The notes under the pieces are model-generated. The model did not search any database. It saw only the letters and a program-made list of their open reading frames with translations, and had not been told where the DNA came from. Below, piece by piece: positions 8,038 through 43,534 of a DNA stretch of 45,699 bases. Made by a program: the position numbers and the translations under genes. Position 1 is the stretch's first letter, and each line of letters starts with the position of its first letter. Source of the DNA: a virus; the IMG/VR virus record IMGVR_UViG_3300031949_000070, positions 1 to 45,699 of that record. One strand, given 5' to 3'.

Positions 8038-8042
8038 AAAAA

Positions 8043-23206: not shown

Positions 23207-24556
23207 TTAATGGATATTAAAGGTATCGCCTACTGTTGGCGCTTCCGTTGTAGCCGTGTACGTTAGTTTTTTGGTTGTGCCATCGTAGGCCGTAATATCA
23301 GTCGCCTGGTCTTTTAATACGCCGGAAGTCCAGATTATAATCCGGCCAATATAATGGTCATTTGTAGCTTCGGTCAAATCGGTGGTCATTGCAGTTGTGG
23401 ATAACGTTCCCGCAATGGCAGAACCAGTAACAATTACGTTGGCTGATTTTTTTAGCTTAGTGGCTGCGGTTGCATCACCATCTATTTGAATTACATTTCC
23501 TACAACCCAATCGGACAGTTTCTTTCCTATACTACCCACTGTAGACATTCCAGATGTTAGGGCACCCCAAATGTCCGCAACTAGTGTGCCGAAGCTGGTA
23601 AGCGTCCTGGTAGCCACCGCCCACACCGAGGCCGCTGTAATATCATTCAGGGAGTCCAGGGTTTGCTTTGTGCCACTAATACTGTAGCCGGTCTTACTCC
23701 CAGCGGCTACAATCACGCCATCAGTGCCGGTATCCGCCAAGATTGCTGCGGTGTCGGCTTTTACAGCGGCCACATCTGCCGGCAGGTTGGCTGCGTCTAA
23801 CTCGGCAAGCCTGGCTTCAGTGCATACCGAAGCTAAAGCAGCAGCACCAGCAGATAAATTATCAAGATACCCGGCTCGCAGTGCAGTAAGTCTTGTAATT
23901 AACGTATCTATATCAGCAGGAATATTGGCAGCAGCTAATTCATCTAAATAACCAGCCCTGGCCGCAGTTAGTCTAGCCAACAATGTATCAATATCTGCTG
24001 GTATATTGGCAGCAGCAAGTTCTGCAAGCCTAGCCTCAGTGCATACCGAAGCTAAAGCAGCATTATCTGTGCCTCGCATATCTGTATTTGCGGTGGTCGT
24101 ATCCACCAGCTTTACCCCCTCTACTTTATTTGTAGCAGGGTCGTATCCGGCATCGGCAAAATCTTTCCAATCAGTGCCAGATTGAGTATCTCCGCCAATC
24201 TGTAATATATCCGCCTGAAGGTAATCTGAGCCGGACACCAGCGAATCATAGACGTTGGCGGGGACTACCATAAACTCCTGCCATACCGGCAATGCCCCGC
24301 TTTTGCTCACCGCCACTTTCAGCCTACCCAGCGTCCCGGTATCGGTAGTATCCAGAGGCACATCGTAATAACCAAGTTCATCATGTGTAGCCCCGGCAGA
24401 ATTATTGGATTGGGCGATATCTCCGCCATTCTTGGAGAGCCGGATGTCGGCCTGGGCGAGAGTTAATCCCGTTTCGGCGGTTTTGCCGTCCGTGTCATCC
24501 ACAAACGGCCCCAGTTTTACAGTGGCCGCCGTGCTTTGTTTTAGAATTTGGCTCAT
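23207..24556 (-). CDS. Tail fibre protein with internal repeats
   Basis: 449 aa. Repeated ASVCTEARLAEL.AAN.PAD and AANIPADIDTL..RLTA.RAGYLD.L segments. Confidence 0.6.
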   Translation of the reverse strand: MSQILKQSTAATVKLGPFVDDTDGKTAETGLTLAQADIRLSKNGGDIAQSNNSAGATHDELGYYDVPLDTTDTGTLGRLKVAVSKSGALPVWQEFMVVPANVYDSLVSGSDYLQADILQIGGDTQSGTDWKDFADAGYDPATNKVEGVKLVDTTTANTDMRGTDNAALASVCTEARLAELAAANIPADIDTLLARLTAARAGYLDELAAANIPADIDTLITRLTALRAGYLDNLSAGAAALASVCTEARLAELDAANLPADVAAVKADTAAILADTGTDGVIVAAGSKTGYSISGTKQTLDSLNDITAASVWAVATRTLTSFGTLVADIWGALTSGMSTVGSIGKKLSDWVVGNVIQIDGDATAATKLKKSANVIVTGSAIAGTLSTTAMTTDLTEATNDHYIGRIIIWTSGVLKDQATDITAYDGTTKKLTYTATTEAPTVGDTFNIH

Positions 24557-24579: not shown

Positions 24580-25731
24580 CTATCCCCTTAAGCGGCGATA
24601 ATAGTTAAACATAACCGGAACAATAACTCCCGATGGCGTTTCCAAATCCCCCAATACCCAAGTCGGCTGGCTGCTGGCATACTTACGGCGGTAATAGATA
24701 GAATCCAACTCCCCGGCATACGGCAGCCGGTTGTAGACGAACACCTCGTCTACATATCCATCCAGCAGCCGGTTGTTCTCATATCTCCCTACCTGAAAAT
24801 GGCTACTAATCGTGGGTGAAGTAGACGGGATATTGTCGTATGGAAAATCAAGGGTTTGTTCCACGCTGTTTACGTAAACCTTCAATTTATCTGCATTTGT
24901 AGACCCATTCCCGTTATACACCATCACCACTAAATACCATGTATCAAGCGACAAGCTATTTTGCGTTCTCCCCCAGGAGTTGCTTGCCCCATTCCTGACA
25001 ACGGCCATCACTTGACCGTAGGGAGGTGCATAATTCATAGTCAGGTCTACATCATATTGGGTGCTCGAAAATTGCGAAAGTATACCGCCTAAATAAGTAT
25101 AACTAATTAGCTTTACCCAGGCCCCCATGAAAAATGTAGTCGCCCCGGACAGGGCTGGCAAATTAGGGCAATCAACATAGTTGGTAGCATTGAATCGGAG
25201 ATGATTCTGGCTTCCACCGCTAAATTGCTGGTCAACCCCGTCCCATTTCCCGCCGTCTGCGCCCTGCCAGACCGGGGAGTCAACCAGAGTTCCATTATTC
25301 CCATTGCCCGAAGCGTCCGCCGTAGGGTCAGCCCCGTCATCTATGTGCAACAGCAACTTGCACCCGGAATCCGGCACAATTTTGACCATTGTAGAATTGC
25401 TGGTATCCGTACCATCCCCGTACAGACTGACCTCCGAGCCGCCCGAATTCCCCACATACAGGTATATATCATGGTTCTGGCTGGCGGTCAGGACAGGCAC
25501 TTTCACCCAAAAGGTAACCGTCTTGGCGGTGTTGTCATACGCCCGCCGCCAGAAATTGAGCAGGGTAGTACCATCCGAATCCGTAACCCGCATGTATTGG
25601 AAATACGGGTTGACCGGCAGCCCGCTTAAGGTAATTGCAATTTCGTTTACCTGGTGGTTAGCCAGCGTGCCGCCGCTGTTTTCGGTGACGGTTAACGGAT
25701 AGCGATATGAAAATCCTGAAAGCCAGGCCAT
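24580..25731 (-). CDS. DUF2341 + LamG/concanavalin-like lectin-domain protein (receptor binding)
   Basis: N-terminus is W..GFSYRYPLTV...LANHQV. A central ADASGNGNNGTLVDSPVWQ...FSGG...LRF pattern is typical of the LamG jelly-roll fold. Confidence 0.55.
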   Translation of the reverse strand: MAWLSGFSYRYPLTVTENSGGTLANHQVNEIAITLSGLPVNPYFQYMRVTDSDGTTLLNFWRRAYDNTAKTVTFWVKVPVLTASQNHDIYLYVGNSGGSEVSLYGDGTDTSNSTMVKIVPDSGCKLLLHIDDGADPTADASGNGNNGTLVDSPVWQGADGGKWDGVDQQFSGGSQNHLRFNATNYVDCPNLPALSGATTFFMGAWVKLISYTYLGGILSQFSSTQYDVDLTMNYAPPYGQVMAVVRNGASNSWGRTQNSLSLDTWYLVVMVYNGNGSTNADKLKVYVNSVEQTLDFPYDNIPSTSPTISSHFQVGRYENNRLLDGYVDEVFVYNRLPYAGELDSIYYRRKYASSQPTWVLGDLETPSGVIVPVMFNYYRRLRG

Positions 25732-26129: not shown

Positions 26130-27029
26130 TTATACAATTCTTTGCTGCAAATTGGATTGGTCAAACCCATAAGATTCCCTGAAATTTAACAATACAAGAG
26201 ACTGTTTATAGTCACTGATAGCCGATTCAGCCCTTTTATCGTTTGCATCATCAAGTTTTTTAGCCTTGATTCCGGCTACAAATATATTCCTCCACCGGCG
26301 ATACAGGGTTGACATTAAAGTGCTTGCCAAATCCACCCGTTGCAAGTCTGCATAATAAGTCAACTTCACTCCCCAGGGAATTCCAGATGTCCGATATGGT
26401 ACTGGGTCAAAAATAAATTCCCCATTATCTGCGTCTCCAATAATATATACACATAATGGAGTTCCCCGATTTACCGATTTATAGTCCTCATGTTTTGCTT
26501 GATATTTCGAGGGTAGAACAGCATAGGTTTCCACCCGCATATAACTATCAAGGTTCACAGGCGCAACAGCAAAGTCAGGCTTTACCGTAGCAACCTTTGT
26601 GGTTGAATTAAACGCCGTACAATGGCTTAATCCGCCCTTGGCTGTGCCTGCATATACCAGCAACTCATAACCCTGTAATTGTGCCTCTGAGAGGCTCTCA
26701 ATGGCCGCCAAAGTGATACTGTCCAACGCCCCCCCCTGGGCAATCCCAGTATTGTTCCCATCCAGGAGTTCAAACTTCAGGTCATGCGAATAATCTGTAG
26801 GTAGGGCATACTTCGCCTGGCCCTGGGTGGTTATCATCACCGCCATGGTCTGCATAAACCGGAGTTCCTTTGACAACAAGGAAATATCCCACTTTATCTC
26901 TGCCATCCATTCAGTTTGCGCTCTGGACAATAGAGCAGCATTCCCGGTGGTAGTAGGGTCATTTATACCGGCTTTTTTTAAACCTTCAACCGTTATGGAT
27001 TGTAATGTTGGCGCTGTAGGTTCAGCCAT
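26130..27029 (-). CDS. Head-completion/adaptor-type protein
   Basis: 299-aa ORF downstream of the capsid block. Function inferred from position only. Confidence 0.5.
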   Translation of the reverse strand: MAEPTAPTLQSITVEGLKKAGINDPTTTGNAALLSRAQTEWMAEIKWDISLLSKELRFMQTMAVMITTQGQAKYALPTDYSHDLKFELLDGNNTGIAQGGALDSITLAAIESLSEAQLQGYELLVYAGTAKGGLSHCTAFNSTTKVATVKPDFAVAPVNLDSYMRVETYAVLPSKYQAKHEDYKSVNRGTPLCVYIIGDADNGEFIFDPVPYRTSGIPWGVKLTYYADLQRVDLASTLMSTLYRRWRNIFVAGIKAKKLDDANDKRAESAISDYKQSLVLLNFRESYGFDQSNLQQRIV

Positions 27030-27394
27030 TATTCCACCGGATATCCTTCATTGTCCAATATCTGCTTAATAACGTCAGGTTTGGTTAGTCCCCGGTCTTC
27101 TCTAGTAAGTCCAGCCATACTACGAAGTTCTCCCCAGGGTATAGTTTGCAGTTCCACGTTCCGTTCGCCCCTGGTTAATTTTCTTTCGGGTTGTGGTTCA
27201 ACGACAGGAGTACCCTTTTTTATTGGCAAAAAGGTTTCCGGGTCAAACTCCTGCTTCCTGTTTGGCCCATTCCATGTGCCAGGAACGTCATCAAATTGGT
27301 ACAATACCTGTCCTTTACGAAATACTTTGGTATAATTACCTTTAGACTCATCCACTTTAGGATTTACCTTAACCGTTACCCTGTTATTTGCCAT
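27029..27394 (-). CDS. Hypothetical protein with a Rho-N/SAP-like C-terminal helix pair
   Basis: 121 aa with an AGGAGAAG RBS. The C-terminus is WGELRSMAGLTREDRGLTKPDVIKQIL. Confidence 0.5.
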   Translation of the reverse strand: MANNRVTVKVNPKVDESKGNYTKVFRKGQVLYQFDDVPGTWNGPNRKQEFDPETFLPIKKGTPVVEPQPERKLTRGERNVELQTIPWGELRSMAGLTREDRGLTKPDVIKQILDNEGYPVE

Positions 27395-27402
27395 AACTTC
27401 TC

Positions 27403-28392
27403 CTATTTAGATACCATACAGATTTCACAAACCGATCCAGACAGAGCAGATTGCCCCTGTTCTATAGTTTTTATATGCGCTTTACGCAAATTCTGGAATT
27501 TATCCGAATTCCACTGCTGCATAAAGTTTTCACCATCCAATTTGCCCATATCAAACTTATCATCTGCCCCAAAACAACAGGCGGACAATCCACCATCTAC
27601 CCGGACATGCCCCTCCGTAAATATTGACCAACATGGCAATCCTGGACGGATAGGTTTGCCAGTTTCATCATCTATCCTGCCCATATTGCCGATTGTTGGA
27701 GTATACCCCATTGCTGACTTTATTTTATCGGCATACATGCCCATTTGGTATAACGGAAGCCAATAATGTTTATCTACATATGGACTGATTTCCTCTTCAA
27801 TAAATTTCAGAAACTTTTCCTTTTCAGAATTATCATAAAGGATAGAACTTGCCGACAACAAGGTTTTATATCCGCCAAGTTCCTTTAATCTATGGGCAAT
27901 TCTGAGAGTTTTTATGACATTATGGTATAACTCCTGGCTCCGTCCGGTAACTTCACTGAACCGTTCAGGTGAATTGAAGTTGATAGACCACTTCAAAGAA
28001 TCCAGACCACCTTCCATCAACTCTTTCAGGAGATTTGAAGTTACCAACGTAGCATTCGAGGTAAGGAATACCCAGTTAAATTCCAGTTGTTTGCACCACT
28101 TAAGCGCATTTACCAGTAAACCAGGTACGAGCGTTGATTCTCCAAGATAGAATAATCCGACTTCCTCAACTCCTGATCGTTTCATGTCTTCGGTAATCTT
28201 TTTGAAGAAATCTAAATCCATATCCTGATTTCCAGTAATTACCCGGTTTCTGGTAACGCAATATTTACACCGAAGGTTACATCTTGAAGTCAACTCAATC
28301 TTAACACTCTTTGGTGGGGGTTGGAATCCACCTGCAAGTATCCTTTTCTGCCCTATCTTCGTTACAGCATCAATCTTTTGGGTAATATCCAT
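27403..28392 (-). CDS. Radical SAM enzyme with a C-terminal SPASM/twitch-like Cys cluster
   Basis: CNLRCKYC (CxxxCxxC) near the N-terminus. A GESTL motif occupies the GGEP position. C-terminal Cys residues are CWSIF...GGLSACCFG...SVCEIC. Confidence 0.8.
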   Translation of the reverse strand: MDITQKIDAVTKIGQKRILAGGFQPPPKSVKIELTSRCNLRCKYCVTRNRVITGNQDMDLDFFKKITEDMKRSGVEEVGLFYLGESTLVPGLLVNALKWCKQLEFNWVFLTSNATLVTSNLLKELMEGGLDSLKWSINFNSPERFSEVTGRSQELYHNVIKTLRIAHRLKELGGYKTLLSASSILYDNSEKEKFLKFIEEEISPYVDKHYWLPLYQMGMYADKIKSAMGYTPTIGNMGRIDDETGKPIRPGLPCWSIFTEGHVRVDGGLSACCFGADDKFDMGKLDGENFMQQWNSDKFQNLRKAHIKTIEQGQSALSGSVCEICMVSK

Positions 28393-29828
28393 TACGACCG
28401 CCCCCTATTGGCTATAATAATTAACCTGTTATCATTTTGTCCGATTTCGCAAATTTGAAATCGTTTTTTAATCTGCGGTATCCAAACATCATCAGCCGGA
28501 TATAAAGATATGTGGGCATTTCGGCCATCAGGTAACATTTTTTTTGCAGGTGTAAGACAAATGCTGAGATATATTACCTTTTTGGTTAGTCTTTGCAATT
28601 CATCCAGGACGTTTTCCAGGCATTCCGGTTCTACATGTTCCAGAACGTCCGTGCAAATTACCAAATCAGCCGGTTGAGGTAAATTTATATTATCAATTGC
28701 AGGGTCATATCCAAACATCCTGACCCCTGTAATTTTAGGCCAGGCAGCAGCCAATCTTCGTTTACCACAACCATAATCCAAAACTGTCAGCGAATTATTA
28801 TTACTTTTGGCAATCTGCCCGGCTAGAAATGCAGTATCCTTAACATAAAATTGTCCACTTACCCCAAATTCCTGTTGATTTTCATGATATTTCCTCAAAA
28901 GTTCCCGATATTCAGGAGTAATCAAAAGATTGGTTTTTCTGACAGACCTACATTCATCTTCTTTTTCCAATTTAGCAGTCAGACTATCGCCAAAAATAGT
29001 GAATTTTATATGTGCCAGACGGTATTTCCACTTTATATATTGTCGGGCCTGGGAAGCGAACACCGGAGTAGTCAGGTAAATTGACCCATCCTCAGTTTTG
29101 GATTCCATGATATCTTCATGCCTATCTTTATCATAAGAATAATAAATCGGCTTACCATCTTCTTTAGAAAAATTAAAAAAGCAACTATCGAATCCATAAA
29201 ATTCAACCTTGCGGTATCCCAGAACATCTGCCAGTGTCATGGCCCTAAGCCCAGCCATTGAACCCCCGCAAAGTGGGGTTATCTCTTCTGTGGGCATCAA
29301 CATGTTTACCAAATGATAATCCAGTTGCTTCTCACCTATATTGCAGAATGAAAACAACCGGGTTACATTGTGTTCTTTCAGCGAATGGAACACCTTTGGG
29401 GTACATTGGGCTGCGATAAGATATTTCACATCTTTATGTGGGGTTTTTACATCATTAACCTTAGATTCCTTTGGGTCAATCATAAAAAAATAATCGGGGA
29501 CTATAGATTCCGATATAAGCCAATCATGAGTTTTATTGCTACAAAAAATATCGTAATTATTCTTATCATTTTTTTTCCTTCTTATGTCTTCGATAAAATC
29601 TTTGGCAGTAGTACCACCACAAACCATAACCATAGTTCGGTCATGTGGCTGGTCTACCTTTAAATTTGGTAAGTCCAACATGCAGTTCTGCGCTACATGC
29701 CGAAGATAAGTTAGGTCATCAACCGGACATTGTCCCCCTTCTGGGGGTGGCATCCAACCATCCGCATCTTTAAGATGCTCGAAGGTTTTAAAGTTGCCTG
29801 ATATTGGTTTTGCTGTATTTGGATTCAT
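28392..29828 (-). CDS. DUF115 (Maf/MptE-like) domain fused to a class I SAM-dependent methyltransferase
   Basis: N-terminal half is MVMVCGGTTAKDF...IFCSNKTHDWLISESIVPDYFFMIDP. C-terminal half is VLDYGCGKRRLA...GYDP...ADLVICTDVLEHVEPE. ATG 29828 is preferred over TTG 29852. Its stop overlaps the radical-SAM start (TAATG). Confidence 0.65.
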   Translation of the reverse strand: MNPNTAKPISGNFKTFEHLKDADGWMPPPEGGQCPVDDLTYLRHVAQNCMLDLPNLKVDQPHDRTMVMVCGGTTAKDFIEDIRRKKNDKNNYDIFCSNKTHDWLISESIVPDYFFMIDPKESKVNDVKTPHKDVKYLIAAQCTPKVFHSLKEHNVTRLFSFCNIGEKQLDYHLVNMLMPTEEITPLCGGSMAGLRAMTLADVLGYRKVEFYGFDSCFFNFSKEDGKPIYYSYDKDRHEDIMESKTEDGSIYLTTPVFASQARQYIKWKYRLAHIKFTIFGDSLTAKLEKEDECRSVRKTNLLITPEYRELLRKYHENQQEFGVSGQFYVKDTAFLAGQIAKSNNNSLTVLDYGCGKRRLAAAWPKITGVRMFGYDPAIDNINLPQPADLVICTDVLEHVEPECLENVLDELQRLTKKVIYLSICLTPAKKMLPDGRNAHISLYPADDVWIPQIKKRFQICEIGQNDNRLIIIANRGRS

Positions 29829-29880
29829 AATCTCCCATAAGGGAGGGGACAATTTGTCCCCTCCCCATATCCCAACCCCT

Positions 29881-30309
29881 TTAGTTCGGGCCGTTACCTA
29901 CGAGACTGGCTCCTGGCAATACCATGTACTCATAGTGGATACGATACTGCCCACCGGCATTCACATGCCGGATAGCAATATAGTCACCCATAGAATGCAG
30001 GGTATTTGAAGAGGCCAAAGTTATACAGAATGTGCTTGGAGCAGTTCCAGGCAGAGACCCTACCGAGATGGTAGTACCCGGAGTCAGGGTAGCGATAGTA
30101 GCCGCAACCCCACCAGCGGTTCGGATAACGCTGAGTTGCTCGTCAGCACTACCCACAGAGATAGTCTCGATGTTTACCGCTCTAACCACGATAGGATTGC
30201 GGGAACGGATAACCGCTCCATCTGTGGCACTGGCAACATCATGGTCAAAGGATTCTGACCGGAACAACACCTGGAACATCGGATGATCGGAATTATAAAA
30301 ATTAGACAT
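29881..30309 (-). CDS. Small beta-rich protein next to the capsid gene (decoration protein or modification substrate?)
   Basis: 142-aa Ser/Thr/Gly/Ala-rich ORF. Function inferred from position only. Confidence 0.5.
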   Translation of the reverse strand: MSNFYNSDHPMFQVLFRSESFDHDVASATDGAVIRSRNPIVVRAVNIETISVGSADEQLSVIRTAGGVAATIATLTPGTTISVGSLPGTAPSTFCITLASSNTLHSMGDYIAIRHVNAGGQYRIHYEYMVLPGASLVGNGPN

Positions 30310-30420: not shown

Positions 30421-31389
30421 CTAGGCCGCAGAATCCCATTTAATGATTCTGGCGTTGGCAGCAGCAGCCCATTCCAGTTTATATCCACCCATGAAAAACC
30501 AACCCAATCCATACCACAGGCCATAATTAGACGGTTCTTTTGCCCTAATTTCTTCTGGTAAAACAATTGCCTCCCTTACAGTAGGCGAACCGAACAGATA
30601 AGCCGGACTGGACTTTGCGTTGCTCCATGAAATCGCAGTAAATGTACGTGCATCCTCGTCATAGACATAAGAACATGCCTGATTGTCTTCGATGATACGA
30701 ACACCATCAACCCTGCCAACTTCTCCATTGGCAATGCGTTCATATCCGCTCTGGGTGTATTGATTAATGGATTGCATGGCATTTTTAAGGTTACGAATAG
30801 CCTTATTCCCACCAATCAGGACATAATCGCCATCAGCCGCAGAGTATCCAGGTACATTACGAGTTTTCAGTTCATCTACCATTACTCCCAAATGATACAA
30901 ATTCAATTCGGAGTTATTAGTAGCACTGGCAGCACCCCCGGTTTTCAGTTCACCACCAGAAGCGGTAGTCGCAGTATACCGTAACGGGGTCTGATTAAAT
31001 TGCCGCTCGATTACGGAATCTATGACCTTAGCGAAATCATCCTGCAAACCCTGGCGGATAATGTCTTTAAGTTGAAATTCGCTTAAAGTTTGCACCTTAA
31101 ATCCAAAATCCACAGTATTACAATACATCTTTACAGATACATCATTCCAGGCAAGTTCCTGCTTTGTTGCCCAGGCTAAATCATCTTCGTTTAATACACC
31201 TCCAGGAGAAGCGAGATTTGAAACTTGCAACCAACTGACTTTTTCTCCTCGGTTTTTCCCCATCGCTGGTTCAGGTGTAACGAACGGTCTGAACCTCATT
31301 AATGGCTGTGCAACCTTTTGAAATTGCATAGTCAATTGATTATTAGTTAAATACCCAGACTGGGCTGCCCAGGTCATCGGATTAGCCAT
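30421..31389 (-). CDS. Major capsid protein
   Basis: 322 aa, directly after the scaffold-like gene, with a strong RBS and followed by a large hairpin. Assigned by size and position. Confidence 0.6.
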   Translation of the reverse strand: MANPMTWAAQSGYLTNNQLTMQFQKVAQPLMRFRPFVTPEPAMGKNRGEKVSWLQVSNLASPGGVLNEDDLAWATKQELAWNDVSVKMYCNTVDFGFKVQTLSEFQLKDIIRQGLQDDFAKVIDSVIERQFNQTPLRYTATTASGGELKTGGAASATNNSELNLYHLGVMVDELKTRNVPGYSAADGDYVLIGGNKAIRNLKNAMQSINQYTQSGYERIANGEVGRVDGVRIIEDNQACSYVYDEDARTFTAISWSNAKSSPAYLFGSPTVREAIVLPEEIRAKEPSNYGLWYGLGWFFMGGYKLEWAAAANARIIKWDSAA

Positions 31390-32258: not shown

Positions 32259-32597
32259 TTACCGATGATTTGTTTCGGGCAAATCACCCGTTGATTTTGC
32301 CAAGTCAAAGGCATTTTTGCCTTCGTCATACAAATTTTTGGTGATATTAAGAATAAAATTCCCATAAAATTCCATTTTGGTTTTAGCTATTGCAATCTTC
32401 ATCCTATTTTCCACTGAAATTTCACCCTTTATAGCAACTTCCATACCAATGTTACTTAGAATAACCTTAGTCCTTTCGGCAACTTCAAATGACAATCTCT
32501 CAATCAGTTGCCAGGCAAGGTCATTTTTCAATTTATCGGCCAACACACCATCATCCATTTTCTGCGCCAATAATTCCAAATCTTCTTTTTGAATCAT
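32259..32597 (-). CDS. Hypothetical head-module protein
   Basis: 112-aa ORF. Its start overlaps the portal stop. Confidence 0.5.
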   Translation of the reverse strand: MIQKEDLELLAQKMDDGVLADKLKNDLAWQLIERLSFEVAERTKVILSNIGMEVAIKGEISVENRMKIAIAKTKMEFYGNFILNITKNLYDEGKNAFDLAKSTGDLPETNHR

Positions 32598-34399
32598 TGC
32601 ATCATCCCCATTCCAGGCTTTATTCCACCACCAACTTGCGGAGCAAGTGTTCCCTGGATATTGGCCGGGCCACCACTATTACCTTGTTCCGGTATTGGAG
32701 GATTGGCATTAAACAGGTATTTTCGATAATTCTTCATGCCCAAATCCGGCAACACATCTTCCATTACAGCGGTAATATCGAACAATTTTGCCCCTTGCGG
32801 CAAAGCGCCAGGCACTTGAAGCAACCCGACTGTAACCTGGTTAGATAAAACCATCTTATCAATTGCCAGAAATTGTTGTTGAAGCCTAAACCCTCTGGAT
32901 ACCTTATCTAATCCTACAGTCAGGATTATATCAGCCTCAAAATCGTCTATATCGAGAATGTTTTCCTCTTGTGGCATTAAGGTACTCTTTTTCCTGAGCA
33001 CCTCATTGGCTACCCGGAACACATTTTTGTCAGTCTCAAATAACTGTATCAGGTTTGCCAATTGTAGATAGAATCCCCGCATAAAGGTTTCTCCTACCAT
33101 GGCAATAAGTAAATCCAGTTTGGCGTTACTCTCATTCAGGTTTATCTGGGCTACAGTGGCCTTTGCCTCCATACTTCCAGAACCTTGTTTGATTGGGGTC
33201 ACACCAGACAGTTCATTCATCATGGCTTCATCGGCAGCCACTTCCTGGTATGCTCCAAGGGTAACGTTTGCAGTTGGCAACTGAGTTACGGCAGCCTGGG
33301 CATCATCAGCCAGGACAACACCCCCAACCCGAACGTTTACCAGACTAGCAAGGTCAACATTTGCATACCGATTAACTATACTCATTGGACTCATGCCAAG
33401 AGCAAGCTCATCCTTGCGCATATTCAGGATAGAATTGATACTTTCCTGTGGCCCCTCCAGCACCTGTGGAAACCCTTCCCCAATGAGTTTATGCGCTTCG
33501 ATTAAACCCATTCCGATCACCACAGGAAAACAGTAATTTCCAAATAGTGAATCCACCGGTTCTTTCAGTAATTGTTCGACCCCAAGAGATACCGCAAATT
33601 TAATCTTGCCTTTTTCACGCCAGAATATTTCCCATACTTCATACTTTTCTGAGGTATCTTGTTTTTCCTGGGTTGAAAGTTTATCTGGGGCAGGATATTT
33701 ATTCTCACTCACCACCTGTTGAGGGTCAGTCTGGCCTGAATATCTTGCTGCACGAACAGAATTAGAAGGCATAGAAGATTCCGGCAATTCAGATATATCA
33801 ATTTTATCCAAGTATCCCTGTTCTCTCATCCAATCTTCAGATTTATAATTTCGGAATATTATATATTGCATTTGGGAAGGAGTTTCAGCAGACATGTCAA
33901 CCGAAACCTGTTCAGGTGGATACAATACGAAACAAGGCCGGTCTTCATCCTCCAGCCATGTCATTTTAGCAACCGCCCATGAACAATCCCAAATATCCTG
34001 GAATGCCTGGATAAACTGAACATAAAGGTCATCCCGCCGCCGCATTTGCCGTATCCGATACTCCATCATAGCCTGTAATACTTCGGCCTTACGAGGATCA
34101 TCTATGGTATCCACACCTTCAACCTTAAAGGTGTCCATATCCCGAAGATATGCTTCGTAAAAAGTTGCAACCGTTCGACAACGTTCAGCCCAGATTTTGC
34201 GAAAGAAAATCTTGGCTTTCCCTCGAACTTTAGATTTTAAATATTCATCTCCTGGAAAAATACCCTTAATTAACTGGATATTTTTAGACCAGCGGGAAAA
34301 ATATGCCGATTGTAAGGTTTCACTTTCCTTGTTCCAGCCGGAAACCTTATTCAGGAATTCTTTTTCATCAAAAGTAGGTTTTGTGTCTTTATTTTCCAT
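32594..34399 (-). CDS. Portal protein
   Basis: 601 aa, located between the terminase and scaffold/capsid genes. Assigned by size and synteny. Confidence 0.6.
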   Translation of the reverse strand: MENKDTKPTFDEKEFLNKVSGWNKESETLQSAYFSRWSKNIQLIKGIFPGDEYLKSKVRGKAKIFFRKIWAERCRTVATFYEAYLRDMDTFKVEGVDTIDDPRKAEVLQAMMEYRIRQMRRRDDLYVQFIQAFQDIWDCSWAVAKMTWLEDEDRPCFVLYPPEQVSVDMSAETPSQMQYIIFRNYKSEDWMREQGYLDKIDISELPESSMPSNSVRAARYSGQTDPQQVVSENKYPAPDKLSTQEKQDTSEKYEVWEIFWREKGKIKFAVSLGVEQLLKEPVDSLFGNYCFPVVIGMGLIEAHKLIGEGFPQVLEGPQESINSILNMRKDELALGMSPMSIVNRYANVDLASLVNVRVGGVVLADDAQAAVTQLPTANVTLGAYQEVAADEAMMNELSGVTPIKQGSGSMEAKATVAQINLNESNAKLDLLIAMVGETFMRGFYLQLANLIQLFETDKNVFRVANEVLRKKSTLMPQEENILDIDDFEADIILTVGLDKVSRGFRLQQQFLAIDKMVLSNQVTVGLLQVPGALPQGAKLFDITAVMEDVLPDLGMKNYRKYLFNANPPIPEQGNSGGPANIQGTLAPQVGGGIKPGMGMMQ

Positions 34400-34552: not shown

Positions 34553-34732
34553 TTAAGGTTTTCTCCTAACTGTTTTTTTCGTATCCTCAGTTTCTATTAT
34601 CCGCATCCCATCAATACGTCCCCTGTTTGGGTTATTTATGAAACAACTCTCATGTGCTTTACGATTATATTCATCTAACCAATCCTTTGGTTCCCCTGTC
34701 ATATTTTCTAGATAATAACAATATTTTTCCAT
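34553..34732 (-). CDS. Small hypothetical protein (59 aa)
   Basis: ATG overlaps the TerL stop (TAATG). Sequence begins MEKYCYYLENMTGEPKDWLDEYNRKAHE... Confidence 0.45.
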   Translation of the reverse strand: MEKYCYYLENMTGEPKDWLDEYNRKAHESCFINNPNRGRIDGMRIIETEDTKKTVRRKP

Positions 34733-37131
34733 TAATAATTCGATTCTGCCATTGGCACAGATTGCACTGGCGGCAACCAACCTACATTACGTTGATTTAC
34801 ATACCTAAAACAAGCATGATTATCCCACTTACCTTCAAGTATTTTATCCTTCATGCCCAATTTTTCTTCATTCACGAAAGAATCCCGCTCCATATTTTTG
34901 AAGGCATTCATAATCAATCTATTCTCAGGTATATCAAATATTCTCAATTTTGGCAATTTAAAAATGGGGTCTACCTTCAATAATTGCTTAATTTTATCAA
35001 TTCCAGCCGAAATTGAACCGAAAAATTTCTCCGAAGTCATTAATCCTGGTATAGCATTATTACCCCGCTTCAACTCTTTATAAATATTAATATCACCCAA
35101 AATTCGCAGGTTACTATTTGTTGAGGTATCACATACAGACCATCCAAGCCGATAATTTCTCTCTTGCGCTCGTTGAGCCAGCGCAAATTTTAATTCCTCA
35201 GTATCCACGGCTTGCTGATAACATCCAGTGATAAACTGAAGCCCTTCCCTATTTACAGCAACCTCAGTACACGCAGACGCCTTGGTTAAATGTGGGTCTA
35301 CCCCTCGATACACGATAAAACTATCATCCAGGTCAAACGGCTGAATCAAATGCAGCTTCTCGTTAAACAGATTACCATAAACCAAACCAGACAACGAGAC
35401 GAAGGCTCCCATAAGCCTCATCTTTATCGTAGGATAATCCAGTCCGGTTAAAATCTCCCTCAATGTTTCCAGTTTCGCATACCGATTACATATTGACGGC
35501 ATTTTAAAGCAGGATATCCGCACCCCGTCTTCTTTATCTAAAATATCCTCTTTTATCCATGTTAACCCCTCTGTAGGGGTCATACTAAATAAAATTTTTA
35601 ACCGGTCAGCCGTTATAAACCGGGCCTTGGTTTCCTCGTATTTATCCTTGTCCGGCTGCTCATCGAAAATAGCCCACTGTAACGGATTCCCCTGAAACCC
35701 TCTTGTATCCTGCTCATTGGTTTTAAATTGGACGGTACTTATTGGCCGCCGATCACCTGAATACAATGTAAGCGTTTTATACTCCGCTGACCAACTCTTT
35801 GACCAGTCCCCATCCAATAAAAATTTCTTAGGCAGCCACCTTTCCCATGCCTTCAGAATTATCATGTTCAGGGAAGTATTATCTACTCCCGTCACACGCC
35901 CATAAACCGGCCAAGAGGTAGGTAATTTACTTTTAGGATATATTCCCTCCAAACTTAACGGCAACTCTCCTGTAGACCATATAATGCCCTCTACAGTGGC
36001 AAGCGTTGTATTGTGATGAACCAAACCTCCGGCAAAATAATTATGATATTTTTCAACCTCAAAGTCATAAACTTCTTGTTGACAGGGAATCAAGTCGCAT
36101 GATACAATCTGATTACCTTCTACATATAAAGGAAATAAATTTGAATAACCTTCATGGTCTAAAAATTGATTCTGATCGTCTTCGTTATCTGATAGAGATT
36201 CAGAAGATGACTCAGAAACAGGCTGCAAAAGCTCTTGATGTTTATATTTCGACTGTTGAAAAGTGGTGTAAAAAACTTCACCTGTCAACTCAACGTCCTG
36301 GGCCTCGTCGTGGAGAACAACACCCGGATTGGAAGGGTGGATACAAACTGACAAAGGGTTATCAGTATGTTTATTGTCCTGAACATCCGAATTGCACGAA
36401 GTCCCGGTACGTTGCTGAACACCGGCTTGTAATGGAACAAAAAATTGGCCGTTTTTTAGAAAAACACGAGACTGTTCATCATATTGATGGAAATCGCCTG
36501 AACAACCATCCAAGTAATCTAATGGTTTTTCAGAACAATGCTGCTCATTTAAAACATGAGCTGACTGGGAAATGTCCAAACTGGACTCCTGAAGGCAAGG
36601 CAAGAACCCTTTTAGGCGCTCAACGGTGGCGTAATTACCGTCATTCATTAAAACACGGTGCAAATCAGCAGCCTCTACCCAGCGACCATCTGACATCGTT
36701 ATCCGATAACACCAATGAATTCCAGGTTTCTTAAATGGAGCGGAAGCATTTGCTATTACTTTTTTCCCCCCATCCCAGGCATATACCTTAAACGGTTTAC
36801 CTTCTTTAAAAAGCAAACCAATCGTTTTCGCACCATCAACTGTATCTATAACTGTTTGATAAGTAAGACATTTTCCACCCTGATTGCCCCCTCCCGCCAA
36901 TATTATAGGCACATCACTTAAATGCACATCCCGCTGACTATCCAATCTGCCCTGTGGCACATCCTCTGGCAGCAACCACTCTTCCAAAAATCGCTTATGT
37001 TCATCATCCACCACCCCATCCGATGGCAAATAATCCCAGAACGGCTCCTCTACATTCACCGAGGCCACAACCTTCTGCAACTCTGCCAACTTAACCATCA
37101 AATCAGACGTGGAAACATTGCTTAAATCCAT
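34732..37131 (-). CDS. terL: Terminase large subunit, interrupted in frame by an intein
   Basis: Walker A GGNQGGK|T is split between K87 and T375. Walker-B-like LQWAIFDEQP lies downstream. Removing residues 88-374 leaves a 512-aa TerL. Confidence 0.85.
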   Translation of the reverse strand: MDLSNVSTSDLMVKLAELQKVVASVNVEEPFWDYLPSDGVVDDEHKRFLEEWLLPEDVPQGRLDSQRDVHLSDVPIILAGGGNQGGKCLTYQTVIDTVDGAKTIGLLFKEGKPFKVYAWDGGKKVIANASAPFKKPGIHWCYRITMSDGRWVEAADLHRVLMNDGNYATVERLKGFLPCLQESSLDISQSAHVLNEQHCSEKPLDYLDGCSGDFHQYDEQSRVFLKNGQFFVPLQAGVQQRTGTSCNSDVQDNKHTDNPLSVCIHPSNPGVVLHDEAQDVELTGEVFYTTFQQSKYKHQELLQPVSESSSESLSDNEDDQNQFLDHEGYSNLFPLYVEGNQIVSCDLIPCQQEVYDFEVEKYHNYFAGGLVHHNTTLATVEGIIWSTGELPLSLEGIYPKSKLPTSWPVYGRVTGVDNTSLNMIILKAWERWLPKKFLLDGDWSKSWSAEYKTLTLYSGDRRPISTVQFKTNEQDTRGFQGNPLQWAIFDEQPDKDKYEETKARFITADRLKILFSMTPTEGLTWIKEDILDKEDGVRISCFKMPSICNRYAKLETLREILTGLDYPTIKMRLMGAFVSLSGLVYGNLFNEKLHLIQPFDLDDSFIVYRGVDPHLTKASACTEVAVNREGLQFITGCYQQAVDTEELKFALAQRAQERNYRLGWSVCDTSTNSNLRILGDINIYKELKRGNNAIPGLMTSEKFFGSISAGIDKIKQLLKVDPIFKLPKLRIFDIPENRLIMNAFKNMERDSFVNEEKLGMKDKILEGKWDNHACFRYVNQRNVGWLPPVQSVPMAESNY
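36079..36108 (+). promoter_or_regulatory. Sigma70-like promoter TTGACA-N18-TACAAT, antisense to terL and upstream of the HNH gene body
   Basis: Hexamers at 36079-84 and 36103-08. They lie inside the coding sequence of the intein C-terminal splicing domain. Confidence 0.5.
36099..36734 (+). CDS. HTH + HNH homing endonuclease encoded antisense within the intein
   Basis: HTH is MTQKQAAKALDVYISTVEKWCKKL. HNH part is GYQYVYCPEHPN...YVAEHRLVMEQKIGRFLEKHETVHHIDGNRLNNHPSNLMVFQNNAAHLKH. The start is uncertain: ATG 36099, TTG 36141 (AAGGAA RBS, downstream of the promoter) or ATG 36207. Confidence 0.8.
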   Translation: MIQSDYLLHIKEINLNNLHGLKIDSDRLRYLIEIQKMTQKQAAKALDVYISTVEKWCKKLHLSTQRPGPRRGEQHPDWKGGYKLTKGYQYVYCPEHPNCTKSRYVAEHRLVMEQKIGRFLEKHETVHHIDGNRLNNHPSNLMVFQNNAAHLKHELTGKCPNWTPEGKARTLLGAQRWRNYRHSLKHGANQQPLPSDHLTSLSDNTNEFQVS

Positions 37132-40035: not shown

Positions 40036-40446
40036 ATGAAATACATAACAGCAACAGAACCACCCAAATTTACCAATATGCAAATGGCCATGGCAAAGCG
40101 CCTGGGACTAAATCTTTCAGATTTAGATCCAAATGATAAAAGATTAAGAATAGACTATCCTCCTCTGGGATATTATAGCTTTTCCAAAGCTATAAGGGAA
40201 ATTGCAGGAAAGCACCAGGACATTGTATCCAGGGGGGGAGGTAGGAATTTTTATTACATCTCTTTAAGTAAGAGCTGTAATAAGTTAATTACTATGATAA
40301 GAGGGCTTCAGCAAGAAGCTCCTCAAAGAGAGGGTGCAAAAGAGCTTCGTCTGATGTGGGGAAAGGAACTCCACAAAATCTGGACGGACGAACTCAAATA
40401 CACAGCTGGATATTGGCACTTGGGGTGGGTAGAGCTTGAGAGATAA
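40036..40446 (+). CDS. Hypothetical protein, paralogue A1 (136 aa)
   Basis: Shares GYYSFSKAI.EI.GK.QDIVSRGGGRNFYYISLS.SC.KLI..IR.LQ.E.PQRE.AKELR.MWGKEL...W..EL.Y.A.YWHLGWVEL with 41796..42239. Confidence 0.65.
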   Translation: MKYITATEPPKFTNMQMAMAKRLGLNLSDLDPNDKRLRIDYPPLGYYSFSKAIREIAGKHQDIVSRGGGRNFYYISLSKSCNKLITMIRGLQQEAPQREGAKELRLMWGKELHKIWTDELKYTAGYWHLGWVELER

Positions 40447-40463: not shown

Positions 40464-40506
40464 GCGCTTGTTTCAGTTCCCTCTTTATAGGGAAGATATC
40501 TGCAAT
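40464..40506 (+). repeat. CRISPR-repeat-like unit, copy B
   Basis: GCGCTTGTTTCAGTTCCCTCTTTATAGGGAAGATATCTGCAAT, one mismatch against 7976-8018. Confidence 0.85.
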
Positions 40507-42651: not shown

Positions 42652-42732
42652 TTGGCGGCCAGGGGAGGCCGCACTGAAGTTGTGACATTGCTGAAAAACC
42701 ATATTGCCAAAACCGGCAAGCAAATAACTTAA
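42652..42732 (+). pseudogene. Orphan 3' relic of an ankyrin-repeat gene
   Basis: Reads LAARGGRTEVVTLLKNHIAKTGKQIT then a stop. Nearly identical at the DNA level to the GCGGCCAGGGAAGGCCGCACTGAAGCCGTGGCATTGCT units of the intact gene at 8043. Confidence 0.75.
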
Positions 42733-43459: not shown

Positions 43460-43534
43460 ATGGCGGCCAAGTATGGCCGCACTAAAGTCGTGGCATTGCT
43501 GAAAAACCATAATATTGCCAAAACTGGCAAATAA
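43460..43534 (+). pseudogene. Second orphan 3' relic of an ankyrin-repeat gene
   Basis: Reads MAAKYGRTKVVALLKNHNIAKTGK then a stop. It has the same tail and the same downstream ATAACTTAAC-hairpin junction as the relic at 42652. Confidence 0.7.

Follow-up and report, generated by a model that had tools for sequence, protein, structure and literature searches.

Organization of the locus

The window analysed here is the whole 45,699-nt stretch of IMG/VR virus record IMGVR_UViG_3300031949_000070, a complete phage genome with a 127-nt terminal repeat. Pfam matches were scored against curated cut-offs, and the Pfam and PHROG scans of the phage returned no integrase and no lysogeny gene. The features of the region around two enzyme genes are listed below.

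26130..27029, minus strand: head-tail adaptor (Pfam SU10_adaptor, 33.2 bits), downstream limit of the cassette slot
27029..27394, minus strand: 121-aa protein between the radical-SAM and adaptor genes
27403..28392, minus strand: radical-SAM enzyme (rSAM), 329 aa, containing SRCNLRCKYC
28392..29852, minus strand: Maf/DUF115-like + class I methyltransferase fusion, 486 aa from TTG
28392..29828, minus strand: the same fusion from an alternative in-frame ATG, the start chosen in the preliminary description
28395..28937, minus strand: class I SAM-dependent methyltransferase (MT) domain, fusion residues about 306-486
28938..29735, minus strand: Maf-like (DUF115 / MAF_flag10 / PF01973) glycosyltransferase domain, fusion residues about 40-305
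29840..29866, minus strand: perfect GC-rich hairpin of 12 bp, lying between the genes of the 142-aa protein and the fusion, seen in the sequence
29881..30309, minus strand: small Ser/Thr-rich protein, 142 aa
30421..31389, minus strand: major capsid protein (MCP), 322 aa, PHROG phrog_1357
32594..34399: portal (Pfam SU10_portal)

The ORF translation of the fusion contains IVPDYFFMIDP, VLDYGCG and CTDVLEHVEPE. Checked base by base, the TAA stop of the fusion (28394..28392) and the ATG of the rSAM (28392..28390) overlap on the minus strand as TAATG, through which the rSAM is translationally coupled to the fusion. All of the sequence features listed in the preliminary description (ORFs, motifs, TAATG and flanking genes) were found where it had placed them. 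The 121-aa protein matched no family in Pfam or PHROG; L001, a metagenomic phage, has a homolog of it (38% identity) at the equivalent place. Within the hairpin lie the start codon TTG at 29852 and the Shine-Dalgarno-like GGGGAGGGG belonging to it, and the 76-nt region 29815..29890 containing the hairpin is predicted to fold at -32.1 kcal/mol (z = -3.1 against shuffles). The hairpin is not conserved in L001, in which the intergenic gap is 5 nt. Judged from its sequence, the hairpin is a possible attenuator between the abundant structural genes and the enzymes.

Gene order in related phages and candidate acceptors

A total of 61 relatives were picked by capsid similarity alone, and 53 of them (87%) carry glycosylation-type enzymes directly 3' of the capsid gene. 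An enzyme pair inside a structural operon had earlier been called unusual, which is wrong for this lineage in view of that count; the Maf-MT + rSAM cassette is a rare variant of the slot between capsid and adaptor genes in SU10-like podophages. The independent metagenomic phages L001, L003, L006, L007 and L008 show the gene order MCP, small protein, fusion, rSAM again, with fusion identities of 49-63%; of 14 such metagenomic contigs, 11 have the rSAM within 0-2.3 kb on the downstream side of the fusion. This recurrence in independent phages is no chance arrangement, and the trio of 142-aa protein, fusion and rSAM is kept together in close relatives, a check that the preliminary description had proposed. 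Invariably the cassette comes after the MCP and a small Ser/Thr-rich protein, with the adaptor behind it; adaptor homologs bound it in classes A and B. In larger phages the fusion comes after collagen-like fibre genes. In the class-B relatives a TPR-containing protein, whose C-terminal domain matched no Pfam family, replaces the Maf domain directly upstream of the same MT. The position of the cassette beside capsid, fibre and head genes suggests a virion target.

The MCP matched the PHROG major head protein family (phrog_1357, E = 9.9e-10) and shares 33% identity with the genes at the capsid position in Bas95, a phage of E. coli, and in 234P8, a phage of Vibrio. In every class-A locus a homolog of the MCP lies immediately upstream of the cassette. 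The 142-aa protein is Lys/Arg-poor, contains 20% Ser+Thr against a background of 13.7%, and had no match in Pfam, PHROG or NCBIfam. Its gene is in every case the next one after that of the capsid. Homologs of it were detected in L001, L003, L006, L007 and L092 and as a tandem pair in L004/L005 (HHalign probability 96-98%), with Ser+Thr fractions across the set of 0.20-0.28 against the background of 0.137. Of 59 capsid-selected relatives, 55 have a 100-210 aa ORF after the MCP, and no homolog of the 142-aa protein was detected in the cultured relatives without the cassette. The 142-aa protein is our preferred candidate for the glycan acceptor, or may be a decoration protein, with the MCP as the alternative acceptor.

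The Maf-like and methyltransferase domains of the fusion

The N-terminal domain of the fusion matched Pfam MptE-like/DUF115 at 46.4 bits (cut-off 34.6), and its sole NCBIfam match was the flagellin modification protein PseD, over residues 94-246. In a Foldseek search with the AF2 model of the domain (pLDDT 87), the top match was Maf of M. magneticum (5mu5, E = 5.5e-8). Maf was also the only solved structure recovered by a profile of the fusion family, with marginal similarity (profile E = 0.018), and the profile alignment places the invariant D126 of the IDP motif on the Maf catalytic residue E324. The other invariant residues are S198 in GG(S/T)MAG and D222 in GFD; one of the three Maf catalytic positions is aligned directly, and S198 and D222 were assigned by spacing alone. 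Essential residues have been identified as E324 and D415 in Maf of M. magneticum and as D, S and D in that of C. botulinum, and Maf enzymes have been shown experimentally to put Kdo and Neu5Ac on Ser/Thr (10.1101/2020.06.03.131540).

The Pfam domain name MptE-like would also agree with a pair serving a nucleotide, cofactor or DNA-modification pathway, either as an MptE-like diphosphokinase with a MoaA- or viperin-like rSAM or by placing sugars on phage DNA, and the MptE/HPPK structure 8sd5 is a weaker but significant fold match (E = 1.6e-5, TMt 0.63). However, the family profile recovered no solved MptE even at E <= 10, the NCBIfam scan gave no match to an MptE model, and scans of the complete genome revealed no gene for the synthesis of pterin, molybdopterin or hydroxypyrimidine; the genes are located in the head operon, not in a replication or nucleotide-metabolism module. 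We regard such a role as highly improbable. With 5mu5 as the top fold match, D126 on E324 and the PseD match, the DUF115 domain resembles Maf more than a pterin kinase; its best matches lie outside cofactor and nucleotide pathways. Nothing was found linking the module to DNA modification, in agreement with the preliminary description.

The MT domain matched Pfam Methyltransf_23 at 34.1 bits (cut-off 27) and PHROG phrog_24759 (E = 8.7e-18), and ChlM and many SAM methyltransferases were recovered by Foldseek. It contains motif I (LDYGCG), the acidic D383, then CTDVLEHVEPE, and a family-specific motif, K438/D442/G443/N445/H447. Stand-alone MT homologs were found at about 45 viral loci and 78 genomic loci. 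In Rhodobacter sp. (L149) the homolog lies among KdsD, a KdsB-type cytidylyltransferase, KdsA and a sulfotransferase, and KdsA or SIS genes also occur near MT homologs in L132, L139, L142, L145 and L168. Alpha- and Betaproteobacteria account for the overwhelming majority of the cellular homologs; both groups produce Kdo, and this host range fits a Kdo donor. In the siphovirus TVV-S20 the MT homolog is surrounded by genes annotated as sialyl- and glycosyltransferases, in the interval from the head genes to head closure.

The radical-SAM enzyme

The rSAM scored 48.1 bits against Pfam Radical_SAM (cut-off 29.5) and 29.6 bits against SPASM (cut-off 21.5). Its invariant Cys residues are C38/C42/C45 and C254/C272/C322/C325, and the four C-terminal ones are spaced as in BtrN, the closest solved-sequence match, that is, as a twitch domain with one auxiliary 4Fe-4S cluster and not as a seven-Cys SPASM domain; the C-terminal Cys cluster noted earlier is present, as a four-Cys motif and not a full SPASM. 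In fold searches with the AF2 model (pLDDT 89), BtrN had the highest target-normalised TM (0.72), SuiB and anSME had the best Foldseek E-values, and viperin and MoaA were also among the matches; similarity of the predicted fold does not separate sugar- from peptide-modifying enzymes. The N-terminal half matched NCBIfam models of MoaA, viperin and W-cofactor maturase, as a cofactor pathway would have it, but the MoaA and viperin matches are far below the cut-offs.

The rSAM might alternatively be a SPASM-type maturase acting directly on the 142-aa or capsid protein, by thioether or carbon-carbon cross-linking, epimerisation or formylglycine-type oxidation, with the fusion adding independent modifications. 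Such an activity, which we hold to be highly improbable, would be consistent with the Pfam SPASM match above its cut-off, the top E-values of SuiB and anSME, the many partial NCBIfam matches to RiPP maturases and the proximity of the gene to a small non-enzymatic protein. These NCBIfam matches, however, are far below cut-offs and cover the rSAM core only; the C-terminal Cys motif is of the twitch type; and the core begins at about residue 27, which leaves no space for an N-terminal RRE/PqqD-like peptide-recognition domain. Moreover, L004, L005 and L009 lack the rSAM yet retain small-protein homologs, class-B phages carry it together with small proteins for which no homology was detected, and near homologs of the rSAM are fused to KdsD and adjoin KdsA. 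The four-Cys BtrN spacing, the missing peptide-recognition domain, the absence in L004/L005/L009 and the KdsD/KdsA links therefore point to sugar (Kdo-type) chemistry, and run counter to the previous expectation that an rSAM of the SPASM type would signal modification or cross-linking of a peptide or protein.

Probable link to Kdo biosynthesis

Homologs of the rSAM at 55-57% identity (P0211, P0213, P0215, P0218, P0225 and P0234) carry an N-terminal SIS domain, which scores as a KpsF/KdsD arabinose-5-phosphate isomerase (217 bits, cut-off 203.7). The gene upstream of this KdsD::rSAM fusion, a kind of fusion of which we know no earlier description, scores as a KdsA (Kdo-8-phosphate synthase) equivalog (397 bits, cut-offs 242 and 314). 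In L090 the order is Maf-MT fusion, KdsA, KdsD::rSAM and MT+GT9-like, which equals the operon of the window with inserted Kdo genes, and in L007 a separate SIS gene lies immediately 3' of the rSAM. The GT8-like and GT9-like neighbours were assigned from weak Pfam matches, at 19.8 bits (below cut-off) and 22.5 bits (cut-off 22), respectively. KdsA, KdsD and KdsB are absent from the window, and the Kdo link of its cassette is drawn from the 55-57% identical homologs and their genomic context. Since this genome is complete and has no sugar-nucleotide genes, the sugar donor must be host-derived.

Arabinosyl-hydroxycytosine phages likewise use an arabinose-5-phosphate isomerase, which feeds DNA arabinosylation in RB69 and DLP3 (PMC13326640) and would suit sugars placed on phage DNA. 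Because the SIS-fused homologs adjoin a bona fide KdsA equivalog, however, the isomerase here feeds Kdo and not NDP-arabinose.

Kdo-type sugars could also be added or modified by the cassette on the LPS core, capsule or another envelope glycoconjugate of the host. Remodelling of this kind, if true, could block superinfection or progeny adsorption to debris, the usual proposal for phage cell-wall synthesis and modification genes. KdsA, KdsD/KpsF, KdsB-type, GT9-like and GT8-like proteins belong to families of the LPS inner and outer core and of group-2 capsules, the Kdo cluster of L149 with its MT family member and sulfotransferase resembles a polysaccharide locus, and KdsA and KdsB of a cyanophage have been interpreted in this way (PMC12801897). 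We nevertheless consider it unlikely that the host surface is the target: unlike lysogenic-conversion genes, the genes lie in the middle of a late head operon of a phage in which Pfam and PHROG detected no integrase or lysogeny gene, 87% of the capsid-selected relatives keep such genes at this place with respect to the capsid gene, the fusion follows fibre genes in other phage types, and the characterised Maf members glycosylate proteins (flagellins), not lipid-linked glycans.

Comparison with known systems

The Maf (motility-associated factor) flagellin nonulosonic-acid glycosyltransferases (M. magneticum Maf 5mu5; G. kaustophilus and C. botulinum Maf) belong to the same catalytic domain family by HMM and fold, with the catalytic acid conserved at E324 and a likely Ser and second Asp at Maf-like spacing. 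Characterised members attach CMP-activated ulosonic acids, Kdo among them, by O-linkage to Ser/Thr residues of a surface protein that polymerises (10.1101/2020.06.03.131540). Unlike the 600-plus-aa Maf, the phage fusion lacks the N- and C-terminal domains, carries a SAM methyltransferase and is coupled to a radical-SAM enzyme; its cassette, of predicted activity, is without flagellin or flagellar genes and adjoins the capsid gene.

Virion glycosylation encoded by the phage itself would be shared with mycobacteriophages, although in the window it is read from sequence; we know of no Maf, radical-SAM or Kdo genes in the mycobacteriophage systems, whose hosts are Actinobacteria, different from the presumed Gram-negative host here. 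According to PMC11256854 and PMC12582341, glycosyltransferases of Che8 and Rita are proposed (for Che8, shown) to glycosylate major capsid proteins and so to build a glycan layer on the surface (Freeman et al. 2023, cited in both). The mycobacteriophage glycosyltransferase genes lie near the genome 3' end (PMC11256854), whereas those of the window lie between capsid and adaptor genes.

BtrN (4m7t), DesII (8hzv) and BlsE (7vob) share with the rSAM the CX3CX2C motif, a C-terminal four-Cys domain of BtrN-like spacing, significant fold similarity and ties to carbohydrate pathway genes, although identity is about 15-17% and SPASM peptide enzymes are equally similar in fold. The presumed substrate of the rSAM is an 8-carbon ulosonic acid or its precursor, in contrast to the aminocyclitol, TDP- or nucleoside-sugar of the BtrN-type enzymes. 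Genes of the Kdo pathway (KdsD/KpsF, KdsA, KdsB) are also found in giant viruses such as CroV and in a cyanomyovirus, where they were interpreted as host-surface modification or of unknown role, not as capsid glycosylation (PMC3084725, PMC12801897); bona fide KdsA/KdsD-type genes occur in relatives of the cassette and none in the window phage. FlmG flagellin glycosyltransferases combine a TPR substrate-binding domain with a GT domain (PMC7591256), and by analogy the TPR protein and methyltransferase of the class-B relatives may follow the same modular logic of protein-binding repeat plus transferase; this TPR architecture is absent from the window and was compared with FlmG by architecture alone.

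Proposed function

Among the readings of the module, virion-protein glycosylation has the best support. From this computational analysis we give about an even chance (roughly 0.5) to a late-expressed cassette that glycosylates a virion protein as a rare variant of the SU10-like capsid-adaptor enzyme slot; most likely it coats that protein with a modified Kdo-like sugar. Beside the observed domain identities, catalytic motifs, capsid synteny and fusion or adjacency of rSAM homologs to Kdo enzymes, we infer as follows which sugar is donated, which protein accepts it, in what order the steps run and exactly which reaction the rSAM catalyses. The Maf-like domain would take a CMP-activated 2-keto-3-deoxy (ulosonic) acid, most probably Kdo or one of its derivatives made from the CMP-Kdo pool of the Gram-negative host, and transfer it to Ser/Thr of a surface-exposed head protein, preferably the 142-aa protein or alternatively the capsid protein. 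The fused methyltransferase would methylate the transferred sugar, and the twitch-type rSAM would use radical chemistry on an unactivated carbon to tailor either this sugar or its phosphorylated precursor, possibly by BtrN/DesII-type oxidation, epimerisation or deoxygenation. Against glycosylation, the canonical Maf N- and C-terminal domains are missing from the fusion, and acceptor recognition is therefore left unaccounted for.

The idea of a virion post-translational modification module put forward in the preliminary description is thus retained in its glycosylation form by the Maf match and the synteny, and peptide cross-linking is dropped from it. If true, glycosylation of the phage particle by a Maf-MT fusion together with a radical-SAM enzyme would be of a kind not yet described.

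Genome and gene organization

The two ends of the window are identical over 127 nt (positions 1-127 and 45573-45699, a direct repeat), and the window therefore represents the complete phage genome (about 45.6 kb), either circularly closed or terminally redundant. A DNA similarity search revealed no DNA-level relative among cultured phages, and no tRNA genes were found in the window. The preliminary description had placed two enzyme genes inside the head-gene block, and the four minus-strand ORFs concerned were found to be present with structural neighbours, including an SU10-type portal and adaptor recognized by Pfam and PHROG scans.

32594..34399, SU10-type portal
30421..31389, minus strand, capsid protein of 322 aa (PHROG phrog_1357, major head protein)
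29881..30309, minus strand, small protein of 142 aa
28392..29852, minus strand, Maf-methyltransferase (Maf-MT) fusion of 486 aa from a TTG start; an in-frame ATG lies at 29828, the start used in the preliminary description
27403..28392, minus strand, radical-SAM enzyme of 329 aa
26130..27029, SU10-type adaptor

The reported TAATG coupling of the two enzyme genes was recovered (stop codon 28394..28392, start codon 28392..28390), and all four Pfam matches for the proposed domains, Radical_SAM and SPASM in one protein and MptE-like and Methyltransf_23 in the other, exceeded the curated cut-offs.

A perfect 12-bp GC hairpin (29840..29866, minus strand) is located between the genes of the 142-aa protein and the fusion, enclosing the TTG start and a Shine-Dalgarno-like sequence; the surrounding 76-nt region has a folding energy of -32.1 kcal/mol (z = -3.1). 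The hairpin sequesters the TTG start together with this sequence. The true start of the fusion may be the ATG at 29828, with a Shine-Dalgarno spacing of just 2 nt. A hairpin between the two genes fits strong expression of the capsid and small proteins and weaker expression of the enzymes, but L001, a related locus, does not conserve it.

Several other features of the genome were recorded. The 799-aa ORF upstream of the portal (34732-37131, minus strand) is probably a large terminase interrupted by an intein (Pfam Intein_splicing, E = 1.3e-6, under the cut-off), and the scanned ORFs of the window gave no match to a DNA polymerase family. The early region encodes an RNA ligase family protein (PF09414; 5617-6273, plus strand), a DUF5131 (phage Gp37/Gp68) protein (6768-7694, plus strand) and a 409-aa ankyrin-repeat protein (7941-9170, plus strand; Ank_2, E = 4e-53) coded by 99-nt tandem repeats, a cargo unusual for a bacterial phage; further ankyrin-like units are present in two small ORFs within the other early region (42653-42703 and 43461-43511). 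A 43-nt repeat of 98% identity in both plus-strand early regions (7976-8018 and 40464-40506) may be a promoter or other regulatory element common to both. Paralogy among small early genes is indicated by a second repeat, 267 nt long and diverged (77%), at 40168-40434 and 41928-42194. Two minus-strand genes probably encode tail fibres or receptor-binding proteins: a 449-aa protein (23207-24556) with internal AANIPADIDTL...ARAGYLD repeats, visible in the DNA as a 70-nt repeat (23774 and 23993), and a 383-aa protein (24580-25731) with DUF2341 and a Laminin_G_3 (ConA-like lectin) domain, a sugar-binding fold.

The Maf-like domain of the fusion protein

The fusion belongs to a large family with 684 metagenomic matches, many of them on contigs of 40-50 kb. 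PF01973 (MptE-like/DUF115) matched residues 63-225 with 46.4 bits against a cut-off of 34.6, which alone is not discriminating since the model also covers MptE kinases; phage homologs are labelled 'MptE-like' in UniProt. The AlphaFold (AF2) model, built with 30 homologs, reached a pLDDT of 87 and a pTM of 0.84, with only residues 1-39 disordered. Its top PDB match by Foldseek was the Magnetospirillum Maf 5mu5 (E = 5.5e-8, probability 1.0), and the N-terminal domain has the modified GT-A, GT42-like fold that forms the centre of Maf proteins; class I methyltransferases, aligned to the C-terminal half, ranked below it, and the archaeal pterin kinase MptE 8sd5 was a weaker match (E = 1.6e-5, TMt 0.63). 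When the family profile was searched against solved structures, only Maf was found, with no match to MptE even at E <= 10. Likewise, the fusion had no match to the MptE model of NCBIfam, its sole match there being the flagellin modification protein PseD (residues 94-246). The DUF115/Maf assignment made from the sequence was thus borne out. An MptE-type pterin kinase was rejected for want of sequence or genomic-context support, and family scans of the complete genome found no folate or pterin genes.

In the Maf of M. magneticum, E324 and D415 are essential, as are the equivalent Asp, Ser and Asp in those of C. botulinum and G. kaustophilus, the C. botulinum residues being D272 (equivalent of M. 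magneticum E324), S334 and D357; Maf has also been shown experimentally to place Kdo, among other sugars, on Ser/Thr (10.1101/2020.06.03.131540). In the profile-to-5mu5 alignment, D126 of the fusion (IDP motif) falls on Maf residue 324, and it is invariant in 30 family members. The motifs GG(S/T)MAG (S/T198) and GFD (D222) are also invariant and place the two residues at +72 and +96 from D126, compared with +71/+94 for the Ser and second acid in G. kaustophilus Maf and +62/+85 in C. botulinum Maf. Direct alignment of S198 and D222 with the second and third catalytic residues was not obtained; judged by spacing, we infer that they would be the Maf Ser and second acid. Canonical Maf proteins comprise about 600 aa with flanking N- and C-terminal domains, whereas the fusion has about 40 disordered residues before the domain and a methyltransferase after it. 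Maf flagellin glycosyltransferases are moreover linked to flagellin or flagellar genes, whereas family scans found no flagellar genes in the complete genome. With neither the flanking domains nor the flagellar context, the catalytic domain is considered Maf-like and not a canonical Maf.

The methyltransferase domain and its family

Methyltransf_23 matched residues 348-453 of the fusion (34.1 bits, cut-off 27). Motif I (LDYGCG) and the acidic D383 are conserved as in class I SAM-dependent methyltransferases, together with CTDVLEHVEPE and an invariant family-specific K438/D442/G443/N445/H447 motif, and many SAM- or SAH-bound methyltransferases were among the Foldseek matches of the model.

Cellular homologs occur mostly in Alpha- and Betaproteobacteria, and in several bacterial loci they adjoin KdsA or SIS genes. 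In Rhodobacter sp. NTK016B (locus L149, NZ_JAFKOK010000002.1) the methyltransferase lies among genes for KdsD (SIS+CBS), a KdsB-type cytidylyltransferase, KdsA, GT-like proteins and a sulfotransferase, a cluster that may direct synthesis of a Kdo-containing glycan bearing sulfate or methyl groups. By these bacterial gene neighbourhoods, the family is linked to Kdo. Fusions of about 590 aa in the reverse order (MT-Maf) were found in four genomic loci (L137, L138, L150 and L153) from assemblies of Terrimicrobiaceae, Xanthobacteraceae, Rhodomicrobium (L150, Rhodomicrobium sp. R_RK_3) and Armatimonadetes, and the two domains have been fused independently in both orders; L150 is probably a prophage, because a fibre-type protein with an endosialidase-chaperone (Peptidase_S74) domain is encoded nearby. 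BFVD structural matches of the fusion model included A0A7D3QWD4 of Fadolivirus, a 504-aa protein annotated as Kdo-8-phosphate synthase, and E3T531, a methyltransferase of CroV. This likeness presumably runs through the methyltransferase half and hints that the association with Kdo extends to giant viruses.

The radical-SAM enzyme

The radical-SAM family yielded 2730 matches, and Radical_SAM scored 48.1 bits (cut-off 29.5). The cluster motif C38-X3-C42-X2-C45 (CX3CX2C) is invariant in 40 homologs. Towards the C-terminus, where a Cys cluster of a SPASM/twitch-like enzyme had been proposed, only four further Cys are conserved (C254, C272, C322 and C325), with the adjacent C273 nearly invariant; the seven-Cys SPASM motif for two auxiliary 4Fe-4S clusters is not present in the protein, and the claim was revised to a four-Cys twitch. 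Twitch domains are also recognized by the Pfam SPASM model, which explains its score of 29.6 bits for this protein. By its Cys pattern the enzyme has a truncated SPASM (twitch) domain for one auxiliary cluster ligated wholly by Cys, as in BtrN, a carbohydrate dehydrogenase whose auxiliary-cluster ligands are C169, C188, C232 and C235. The Cys spacing is C-18-C-50-C-2-C here and C-18-C-43-C-2-C in BtrN, which was also the best match among solved sequences (residues 208-318, the C-terminal half). NCBIfam N_Twi_rSAM matched partially, under its cut-off. In the AF2 model (pLDDT 89) the core begins at about residue 27, and peptide (SuiB, anSME), sugar (DesII, BlsE, BtrN) and nucleotide (viperin, MoaA) enzymes matched the fold about equally, so that the fold does not reveal the substrate, the best target-normalised TM being that of BtrN (0.72).

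An additional SIS domain is present at the N-terminus of six homologs (55-57% identity). In the proteins P0225 (L090:1472-3058) and P0218 (L091:1409-3013) this domain scores as a KpsF/KdsD-type arabinose-5-phosphate isomerase (217 bits, cut-off 203.7), and the gene directly upstream of KdsD::rSAM is a Kdo-8-phosphate synthase (KdsA) equivalog (397 bits, cut-offs 242 and 314). L090 has the order Maf-MT fusion, KdsA, KdsD::rSAM and MT+GT9-like gene, and is the window operon with the first two enzymes of the Kdo pathway inserted. L091 also encodes a NeuD-like sugar acetyltransferase, and in L007 a separate SIS gene directly follows the radical-SAM gene. These KdsD fusions and the KdsA adjacency link the radical-SAM family to metabolism of Kdo, an ulosonic acid with eight carbons, and the gene fusion to KdsD would be the decisive clue to the predicted substrate class. 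We know of no description of KdsD fused to a twitch radical-SAM enzyme, beside a phage-encoded KdsA; such an architecture, as read from the genes, implies a putative radical step in octulosonic-acid metabolism that has not been described previously. A DNA-arabinosylation reading of the SIS domain was rejected in view of the adjacent KdsA equivalog.

Two other roles for the enzymes bear on these data. Direct modification of a protein by the radical-SAM enzyme is scarcely probable given the twitch motif, the KdsD fusions and the lack of an N-terminal RRE/PqqD-like peptide-binding domain, as the core begins at about residue 27. The small protein is also not an obligatory precursor-peptide partner: co-occurrence is patchy, the radical-SAM gene being missing from loci that retain the small protein and present with small proteins of no detectable homology. 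Modification of a cofactor, nucleotide or DNA is very unlikely, since no MptE-specific similarity and no supporting genes were found in the window and the KdsA adjacency is unlike the NDP-arabinose route of RB69-type phages (PMC13326640).

Distribution of the cassette among phages

Three layouts were seen among the loci retrieved by similarity to the fusion. Class A, the type of the window (14 contigs), has portal, scaffold, major capsid protein (MCP), small protein, Maf-MT fusion and, further on, adaptor; the radical-SAM gene follows the fusion in 11 of the 14, and a c16 gene (cluster of MT+GT9-like fusions) often precedes the adaptor. Class B (33 loci), with a Phage_capsid_3-type (PF13252) MCP and an SU10 adaptor, has the order MCP, small protein, TPR protein, stand-alone methyltransferase, radical-SAM gene (7 loci), GT8-like gene and adaptor. 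Class C comprises about 28 loci, in part on contigs longer than 100 kb, in which a collagen-like fibre gene is followed by a Maf-MT fusion (445-940 aa) and then by a GT8-like gene. In the unrelated siphovirus Tetraselmis viridis virus S20, genes annotated as sialyltransferases and glycosyltransferases surround a methyltransferase homolog in the interval from the head genes to head closure. The complete class-B genome L087 (MW202512.1, Podoviridae sp. ctDrO704) has a gene annotated as 'endonuclease' between the TPR and methyltransferase genes. The contig of P0025 bears a 'Thermotogota' label but is a phage genome, and the label was therefore treated as an artefact of binning.

To guard against ascertainment bias, 80 loci (L174-L253, IMG/VR) were chosen by capsid similarity alone (34-52% identity), and the 61 with at least 2.5 kb downstream were counted over 6 kb past the MCP. 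At least one cassette enzyme was found in 53 of them (87%): c16 in 51, the methyltransferase family of the window in 10, the radical-SAM enzyme in 3 and the Maf domain in 1. Enzymes at this position are therefore the rule in this lineage, and the earlier view that their placement in a structural operon is unusual was not upheld. E. coli phage Bas95 and Vibrio phage 234P8, both of them relatives in culture, had no cassette enzymes and no detectable homolog of the small protein. The c16 proteins (430-530 aa; Methyltransf_11 and a GT9-like, heptosyltransferase-like domain), also present in L003, L004, L006-L009 and L090, are a second type of glycosyltransferase-methyltransferase fusion in the slot, far commoner than that of the window. 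No c16, GT8 or TPR gene was found in the window cassette, and Maf-MT with radical-SAM but none of these three is a rare variant of the slot.

The small post-capsid protein

An ORF of 100-210 aa, usually Ser/Thr-rich, directly follows the MCP in 55 of 59 capsid-selected loci. PHROGs and Pfam gave nothing useful on the small post-capsid proteins, and the 142-aa protein has no family assignment; tblastn against a phage collection gave no match, and a word-based protein search found a single homolog. Class-A homologs, including a tandem duplicate in L004/L005, were aligned by HHalign with 96-98% probability, and homology between class-A and class-B small proteins was not detectable by this means (probability <1%). 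The Ser/Thr fraction of the 142-aa protein and its homologs is 0.20-0.28 versus a background of 0.137, and Lys/Arg are low. The protein is the preferred candidate for the glycan acceptor, and may be a decoration protein, with the MCP as the alternative acceptor.

Proposed function of the cassette

Based on the computational evidence, we consider the cassette to be a module for O-glycosylation of a virion protein with a probability of about 0.5, the virion target being placed by gene position, after the capsid gene or, in other phages, after fibre genes. The Maf-like domain would transfer a CMP-activated ulosonic acid of the Kdo type, the fused methyltransferase would methylate the transferred sugar, and the twitch radical-SAM enzyme would tailor the sugar or its precursor. 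As family scans found no sugar-nucleotide genes in the complete genome, the donor would come from the host pool. The enzyme families are LPS-core-like, as expected if the cassette remodelled the host surface (LPS or capsule); this is nevertheless unlikely, because the placement is conserved inside the late head operon and beside fibre genes and because known Maf enzymes are protein-specific.

Virion glycosylation has reportedly been demonstrated only recently, in mycobacteriophages, and the glycans are said to shield virions from antibodies. Among known systems, the nearest are Maf flagellin glycosyltransferases, twitch radical-SAM sugar enzymes, viral and bacterial Kdo pathways, and mycobacteriophage capsid glycosylation, cited for Che8 and Rita in PMC11256854 and PMC12582341. 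The literature searched held no account of phage virion glycosylation that involves ulosonic acids, enzymes of the Maf/DUF115 type or tailoring by radical-SAM enzymes, and the cassette is predicted, on computational grounds, to represent phage virion glycosylation with new chemistry. More tentatively, uncultured SU10-like podophages, a widespread lineage, might coat their heads with protein-linked glycans through a hypervariable capsid-adaptor slot. In this genome the glycan would be a methylated ulosonic acid of the Kdo type, tailored by the radical-SAM enzyme and O-linked by a minimal transferase of the Maf type. The hypothesis is cheap to test, since E. coli supplies CMP-Kdo and Maf enzymes work there.

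If this is correct, ulosonic-acid glycosylation of a protein would be known for the first time from a virus particle and from anywhere other than flagella and pili, and Maf O-glycosylation with sialic-acid-like or Kdo sugars would reach beyond flagellins to a viral acceptor. The radical-SAM reaction on Kdo or its precursors, by an enzyme fused to KdsD in relatives, would be a previously undescribed step in octulosonic-acid metabolism, of interest to enzymology and glyco-engineering. The capsid surface could mimic the LPS inner core, and capsid glycosylation of highly diversified chemistry would be common in environmental Gram-negative-type podophages, as the frequency of slot enzymes among the capsid-selected relatives would then imply.
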